DNA from: Eledone cirrhosa
Taxonomy: Eukaryota
NCBI GenBank assembly: GCA_964016885.1
Contig: OZ024755.1
Coordinates: 39,990,001-40,054,000, forward strand
Reading direction: 5' to 3'
Length of the DNA: 64,000 nucleotides
A program made the translations under genes and the position numbers. Below, one piece after another: positions 46,234 to 46,760 of the stretch (position 1 is its first letter; every line of letters begins with the position of its first letter). The notes under the pieces were generated by a model. That model saw only the letters and a list, made by a program, of their open reading frames with translations. It searched no databases and had not been told where the DNA came from.

Positions 46234-46760
46234 ATATTGTTATACTTTGGGAGGGTCATGTTGCCAATAAGAAACACACGCACCGGTTGCTTTCACTTCA
46301 GTTTAATTTATTAAATATTTGTGGATTTGCAGATTTATGAATTTCTGGTTGGTTGGTTGGTTCCACAACCAGATAGTTGTTTGTATATGTATGGTCATGG
46401 TTCTTTCGTCGCACACTCTGTGACCTCTTCAGTGAAAATGGCGTAGAATGGCGTAGGATAGAAGAAAGGAAAGGCACAGAAACGAAGAAAGAAATCCCCA
46501 GTCACTGAAGAGGTCACAGAGTGTGTGACGAGGGAGCTATGGCTATGTATATATGAACAACTGTCTGGTTGTGGAACCGACCAGCCAACCAGAAATTTGT
46601 GAATTTGTAAATTTATAAATGTTTAATGGATTAAGTTGAAGTGAAGGCAACTGGTGCGTGTGTTTCTTGTTGGCAGCATGACCCTCCCAAAGTATAACAA
46701 TATCGGTTTCAACACACGATTTCAGATAAAGAATCTTGCTAAACAAATTCAGAAACGAAA
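46234..46760 (+). mobile_element. Fold-back element: 202-bp arms, 66-nt loop, 3' extension, hammerhead-like motif, A-to-G hypermutated
   Basis: Arms 46234-46435 and 46502-46703 align without indels. Motif cactgaagag-gtcaca-gagtg-tgtgac-ga(aa). Confidence 0.9.

Follow-up and report, generated by a model that had tools for sequence, protein, structure and literature searches.

A-to-G hypermutation is known from avian retroviruses, in the U3 region of RAV-1 (Felder 1994) and in an inverted repeat of avian leukosis virus (Hajjar and Linial 1995), both cited in PMC12925331 and PMC8586724. As described there, reverse transcription carried into DNA a cluster of ADAR-type A>G changes from an inverted repeat in retroelement RNA, as appears to be the case at the locus presented here. 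The avian hypermutants arose in culture and are exogenous retroviruses, whereas our locus belongs to an endogenous, non-viral retrotransposon in a genome assembly, and is one of at least 16 such loci. The DNA editing of endogenous retroelements by APOBEC3 is likewise established, with a host deaminase leaving single-type mutation clusters in genomic copies (PMC2873906). However, APOBEC3 acts on single-stranded cDNA and leaves sense-strand G>A changes, in contrast to the sense-strand A>G changes found here, which are duplex-dependent and lie in an ADAR context, i.e. point to the RNA level. Hyper-editing of repeat RNA by ADAR shares with our locus its chemistry, the depletion of 5' G and a Penelope-like RNA substrate, lizard Penelope RNA being heavily edited and octopus among the most hyper-edited species, although that editing is described in RNA-seq only and the edits reported here stand in DNA (PMC5625713). 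ADAR1 is described as restricting human L1 without editing, L1 RNA being unedited (PMC5224506), and a 2016 review treats the roles of ADAR editing both in retroelement evolution and in mutational suppression as assumed but undetermined (PMC4982230). In the open-access literature, searched by titles and the starts of abstracts, we found no account of genomic DNA holding ADAR-edited copies of an endogenous retrotransposon.

The element concerned resembles the EN+ Penelope-like elements (PLEs) of Neptune/Nematis type, as these are described in PMC8557442 and PMC11167929, both in the order of reverse transcriptase (RT), Cys linker and GIY-YIG and in its partial tandems, inverted 5'-truncated copy, one-sided "tail" (a concept taken from the same accounts), candidate pLTR hammerhead and (TA)n targets. 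The insertion ends inside the putative start of the ORF, as in PAc of Anolis, and its tail measures ~55 nt, compared with 30-40 nt in canonical EN+ PLEs. Compared by description, these accounts of canonical elements mention no edited genomic copies.

We investigated a 64,000-nucleotide stretch of Eledone cirrhosa DNA (the window), which contains the following features.

44337..46233, (TA)n target array on the left side, interrupted by TGs that we do not ascribe to editing.
46234..46435, + strand, left arm: antisense (inverted) copy of the element's pLTR without the tail, with 13 A>G changes on the + strand; its first bases, from 46234, merge into the TA array.
46436..46446, + strand, junction duplication of 11 nt, repeating the start of the sense part.
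46447..46501, + strand, unpaired loop of element sense sequence, 0 of 27 As changed.
46500..46544, + strand, hammerhead-like motif, a candidate minimal type I: stem I, CUGANGA, stem II, GAAA and a short stem III.
46502..46703, + strand, right arm: sense pLTR of a Penelope-like element, with 18 A>G changes.
46678..46759, + strand, putative 5' start of the element ORF, with a presumed start codon, read into the pLTR; the insertion ends within it.
46704..46759, + strand, PLE tail, unpaired and confined to a single end, with no change among the 18 As of 46704-46750.
46760..46876, right (TA)n target array.
34823..35072, - strand, a second fold-back of this PLE family, shorter than the first and not hyper-edited.

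The arms of the focal hairpin pair without gaps (i+j=92937), 171 of 202 positions being Watson-Crick, against 44-72 of 202 in 12 neighbouring registers. All 31 mismatches are G:T on the + strand, with the G in the left arm at 13 and in the right arm at 18, and there are neither A:C nor transversion pairs (31 G:T vs 0 A:C, binomial p 9e-10); a recount by pairing thus returned the 202-bp hairpin with indel-free arms and about 31 G:T-only mismatches (18 right, 13 left) of the preliminary description. As a control we took 42 further arm pairs of the family (7,646 columns), almost all of them at unedited loci with comparable surroundings, and counted 128 mismatches of mixed type (G:T 34, A:C 29, other 65), a rate of 1.7% vs 15% at the focal locus. 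The second fold-back, at 34823..35072, is similarly mixed in a gap-free register (2 G:T, 2 A:C and 1 G:A).

When polarised against 41 family arms from 29 other loci, 31 of 31 focal changes are A>G on the + strand and none is C>T, the direction that the preliminary description had named as one that would refute it; the six sites that it had polarised as A-to-G from the copy at 34823..35072 were correctly assigned. The sole remaining focal difference is one variant found in both arms and also in 7 of the 41 other arms, and the locus, having no other private change, is very young. The G allele occurs in a few other family arms at ten right-arm sites and at both outer left-arm sites; the family-polymorphic G sites are 46599 (10/36), 46584 (7/40), 46669 (6/41) and 46635 (5/41), and at all of these the focal left arm keeps the A state.

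The changes are confined to the duplex, with 31 of 138 As changed in the stem, 0 of 31 in the loop and 0 of 18 in the tail (duplex vs 0/49, Fisher p 6e-5), rather than spread equally over loop and extension, a pattern that the preliminary description had weighed against its reading. A changed A is preceded by T (16/43) or A (11/48) more often than by C (3/30) or G (1/17); the depletion that had been anticipated for 5' G is seen for 5' G and C together (T/A vs C/G, p 0.005), while 5' G alone is not significant (p 0.12). Within gacgAAAg the A after G (46531) is spared and the next two (46532 and 46533) are changed, as had been stated. There is no clear bias in the 3' neighbour (G 5/17).

We identified the hairpin, from the sequence features of its family, as the 3' end of a young Penelope-like retroelement with features matching EN+ PLEs, which refines the earlier reading of an unnamed retroelement. 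Across the 3.0 Gb genome, 7,529 sites match a 40-nt tail motif exactly. The family copy L045 matches RVT_1 with an E of 7e-4, falling short of the curated cut-off, and GIY-YIG at 24.1 bits, exceeding the cut-off of 22.6, within its last 140 aa, i.e. at the C-terminus. Its translation contains, by inspection, C-x4-C-x2-C ahead of the endonuclease core, two Cys within the core and His residues after it, corresponding to the CX2-5CxxC linker of Neptune/Nematis and the CCHH endonuclease motif. EN+ PLEs have one uninterrupted ORF; none of five long copies here has a single intact frame, and L129 has overlapping frames of 335 and 863 aa. In L128 tandem units lie ~4.08 kb apart, forming the partial tandems with pLTR, and the ORF frame runs on across the tandem junction, on which the putative ORF start at 46678..46759 is based; the focal locus itself is non-coding. 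The closest named protein relative is from Octopus vulgaris (66% identity), and the protein homologues are mostly without a name, one being called GIY-YIG domain protein.

Fold-backs arranged tail to tail within (TA)n arrays are a frequent form of insertion in this family. An inverted piece was present at 43 of 79 unbiased loci, and 33 of these 43 pieces stop 53 nt before the reference 3' end, at the position where the focal left arm also ends; two RT start sites are described as flanking the PLE tail (PMC11167929), matching the ends of the family's inverted pieces. Among 80 unbiased loci, 46 tail matches directly abut a TA array of at least 30 nt. The hammerhead-like core is conserved over about 110-124 family arms. 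Our own minimal type I hammerhead descriptor, of a kind that retrozyme work uses to model such elements (10.64898/2026.07.22.740005), matches the unedited copy L004 and fails at the focal locus, where the edits at 46532, 46533, 46536 and 46542 disrupt the GAAA core and stem I. Among the Rfam matches listed there was no hammerhead, and only sub-threshold matches to miRNA-type hairpins. The window holds two more short fragments of the same PLE family, at 3922-4018 and 9459-9498.

We additionally identified A>G-loaded copies elsewhere in the family. These include L010 and L011 among the 29 other loci of the first search, and L035 and L083 among the 80 unbiased loci (2/80, 95% interval 0.3-8.7%); in L083, 143 of 426 As are changed, with no T>C. 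Two search patterns, each demanding two Gs, recovered 10 and 9 loci with 2 in common, nearly all of which are also rich in A>G beyond the pattern itself, with just 6 such changes each in L114 and L118. From the pool we left out L141 (ambiguous, with 17-20 A>G amid many other differences, in an older subfamily), L006 (4 A>G only, within an otherwise edit-free zone) and L016 (the same locus as L072), and duplicate copies of one locus. In the 15 non-focal loci that were pooled, A>G makes up 514 of 605 private changes and T>C 11, compared with 206 A>G of 1,269 in unedited copies. The central proposal of the preliminary description, that a hyper-edited fold-back retroelement RNA was retrotransposed, is supported, with the phenomenon recurring at 15 other loci. 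Capture-recapture for the matched stretch gives ~36 edited loci, a lower bound; from this and the 2 of 80 in the unbiased sample, edited copies amount to roughly 1% of family copies.

ADARs favour a G as 3' neighbour, and in the pooled loci, with pattern-forced sites excluded, the edit rate is highest before G (0.41, compared with A 0.28, C 0.25 and T 0.25), 130 of 470 edited sites having a 3' G. This preference is described as weaker in invertebrates, with 20-25% of sites in octopus (PMC5625713). The pooled rates by 5' neighbour (T 0.37, A 0.38, C 0.19 and G 0.16, the last from 53/328) follow the ADAR preference (PMC8586724, PMC5625713). The four loci that were recovered by searches requiring no edits show both a depletion of 5' G (p 1e-5) and an excess of 3' G (p 2e-8). 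The edited strand in the other loci is always the ORF-sense strand, i.e. the RNA strand. Among edit-hit codons, 54 of 67 in L083 (the stop included) and 35 of 44 in L010 change meaning and, with the hammerhead-like core broken at the focal locus, the effect of editing on copies looks destructive.

ADAR-family deaminase genes are present in the genome, with 12 matches to PF02137 above the cut-off at 4 places and one open frame carrying HAE, PCG and SCS motifs. At one of these places (L186-L187, G000:C6:13642905-13647674) the ADAR-family deaminase domain lies in two large blocks ~800 nt apart, far fewer pieces than at the multi-exon ADAR-family loci on C1 and C25.

Several edited copies have individual features. 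L133 (G000:C22:15912500-15918000) is a near-perfect fold-back whose arms, each of ~1 kb, have 86 A>G changes in common and do not differ in the compared columns, and is a very recent edited insertion. L116 and L117 (G000:C2, near 324750432 and 324760545) are edited arms in opposite orientation, 10 kb apart, with 29 A>G in common, possibly one insertion that was later split, or a very long inversion. L011 (G000:C3:54530914-54534172) has a run of ~20 Ts at the centre of its fold-back.

The distribution of edits between arms separates the focal locus from the rest of the family. In 11 inverted arm pairs at 10 other loci, 313 edits are shared and 19 are found in one arm, and the same pairs contain 50 other differences between arms. 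As the arms of these loci share their edits, a single template, edited beforehand, gave rise to the inversion, whether RT passed twice over one RNA or the cDNA folded back and was copied. A/G differences confined to one arm might point to two RT passes, but 19 such differences vs 50 others, partly alignment noise in L137 and L139, are not decisive. At the focal locus, 0 of 15 edits are shared; its arms were edited independently, each on the + strand, and therefore the hairpin was present in the edited RNA. Most edited copies are thus sense-edited only, with the inversion made later, and the focal both-arm locus represents a rare class, a further refinement of the earlier reading. This class rests on one locus (n = 1), as antisense-edit patterns returned no second case in 9 + 30 screened loci (the 30 being drawn from 66 matches of one pattern).

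The other 15 loci also share an edit-free 3' zone, with 0 of 345 and 0 of 220 As changed in the last two bins and 108 of 618 just upstream. The 0/345 stretch matches 46631-46703, where 4 of 24 As are edited at the focal locus, so that the dsRNA partner of the other loci was probably not such a hairpin. The 4 A>G changes of L006 fall inside the zone and, together with the focal 4/24, indicate that insertion can proceed despite edits there. Bound PLE protein might have shielded the zone.

The focal locus would, on the reading that we favour at a probability of roughly 85%, be a second-generation PLE copy, a fold-back transcript that was edited by ADAR and then reverse-transcribed into a (TA)n target. 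Sense-strand transcription of a fold-back copy of the family would have produced an RNA with a 202-bp hairpin, a loop of 66 nt and a 3' tail that remained unpaired, in which ADAR, as the presumed enzyme, deaminated ~22% of As in both arms and none in loop or tail. The family RT, acting in trans, may then have taken the tail as its priming site and, with inosine read as G, copied both arms into the (TA)n target, presumably in the germline, which would have fixed the 31 G:T mismatches in DNA. Against this reading count the missing parent junction, the missing confirmation in reads, the single both-arm locus, the focal p of 0.12 for 5' G, the lack of a focal 3'-G bias, the 3' zone that is edit-free at the 15 other loci but not here, and the restriction of human L1 by ADAR1 without editing.

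The inversion junction is unique in the assembly, a pattern search allowing up to 1 mismatch having found no parent locus with the same junction elsewhere. This leaves room for an in-situ origin, in which an ordinary fold-back's own edited transcript was reverse-transcribed and replaced the locus by recombination or RNA-templated repair with no new insertion, and with which the left end at exactly the family's standard inverted-arm end and a target-site duplication unreadable in (TA)n would also agree. We consider this unlikely, as a parent could be polymorphic, missing from the assembly or no longer present, the same left end would result if the copy entered the (TA)n upstream of the parent, and other edited loci with shared-edit arms are clearly new insertions.

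Less likely again is a duplex of two molecules, in which sense and antisense RNAs were edited intermolecularly and an RT jump made the hairpin in cDNA only. The sense-only edited copies show that non-hairpin duplexes probably form, and the 11-nt junction duplication is typical of template switching. However, editing ends at the paired boundary on both the loop and the tail side, the left arm ends at the position normally made from sense RNA, and no solo antisense-edited copy was found in the antisense-edit pattern screens.

An artefact of sequencing or assembly, in a hairpin flanked by long TA arrays, has in our judgement only a slim chance of accounting for the locus. Same-type mismatch clusters can be errors, as with G-to-A in Sanger traces (PMC2873906), and the public sequencing runs, of which 4 of 23 were aligned, did not yield the edited haplotype. 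None of the runs listed is recorded as RNA. The best share of sampled words in these runs was 0.39; depth was zero at 46389, 46393, 46399 and 46532-46542 in runs X1 and X2, and the edited bin 46310-46327 was covered in X1 only, at a low depth of 6.5. The runs may derive from another individual, and such depth holes prove nothing. Errors would neither obey ADAR neighbour rules nor spare loop and tail, and would not explain the 313 changes that are identical in opposite-strand arms at other loci. The 42 control arm pairs show mixed mismatches at a rate of only 1.7%. In the contigs of run X4, G predominates at 46669, where A accounts for a depth of 151 out of 2,448, with 46676 a second position of note, and the DNA reads of run X21 are 99% A at 46669; the G signal of X4 is only a lead for live RNA editing, as the type of this run is not on record and a likeness filter biases it.

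Single-type mutation bursts can arise in reverse transcription, and a mutator other than ADAR might act by RT misincorporation under skewed dNTP pools or by adenine deamination of a DNA intermediate. ADARs themselves edit the DNA of DNA:RNA hybrids in vitro (PMC12925331). Misincorporation would not stay within the duplex and spare loop and tail, cDNA deamination predicts T>C on the sense strand where the counts are 514 A>G vs 11 T>C, and the neighbour context fits ADAR, so that a mutator of this kind is highly improbable. Finally, G:T mismatches can result from C>T decay, at CpG or elsewhere, as well as from selection for a G:U-tolerant RNA hairpin, and the + strand is predicted to fold more stably than the - strand (-342 vs -245 kcal/mol), but the polarised changes (31 A>G, 0 C>T) already refute decay, and pairing selection would keep both mismatch types and need a long divergence at odds with the lack of other private changes, making both practically negligible.

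We also considered whether the TA arrays flanking the hairpin are themselves edited (UA)n, and rejected this, as arrays of one polarity are the norm (9 of 10 long arrays), the spacing of Gs is non-geometric and autocorrelated (rho 0.38), and the orientation bias at tails is weak (12 vs 6 loci). In the long TA arrays at 44337-46236, 51843-53820 and 41495-42332, stretches of hundreds of bases are interrupted almost exclusively by TG or almost exclusively by CA, and such arrays sometimes switch polarity within one array; the spacing suggests unit amplification. The window also contains four 3'-end copies of another, LINE-like-looking element (43701-44335, 46877-47316, 51113-51746 and 39387-39878), three of which are 98-99% identical; the three young ones run into TA arrays, and the PLE hairpin sits in the TA array of the first (43701-44335). 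Other palindromes or fold-backs, at 53830-54629, 57644-57853, 19242-19569, 58570-58733, 34360-34478 and 10447-10725, are mixed in mismatch type and are therefore not edited.

The steps that form inverted and tailed PLE insertions are described as unvalidated (PMC11167929, PMC8557442). The edits across the family are on the sense strand and common to both arms, and PLE inversions were therefore built from one template molecule; shared edits directly constrain the steps that build such insertions. More broadly, it is probable that in this lineage ADAR acts as a germline mutagen of an active PLE, with ~1% of insertions persisting as heritable editing fossils in which the edits serve as single-molecule barcodes and the 125-nt edit-free zone may be a footprint of PLE protein. 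If true, this would be the RNA-level counterpart of APOBEC editing of retroelements. The sequence evidence is of edited RNA entering the genome repeatedly and crippling the resulting copies, and the idea is testable in any animal genome, by scanning for inverted repeats with G:T mismatches on one strand and for A>G clusters in repeat families. Such fossils would give a record of germline ADAR activity.
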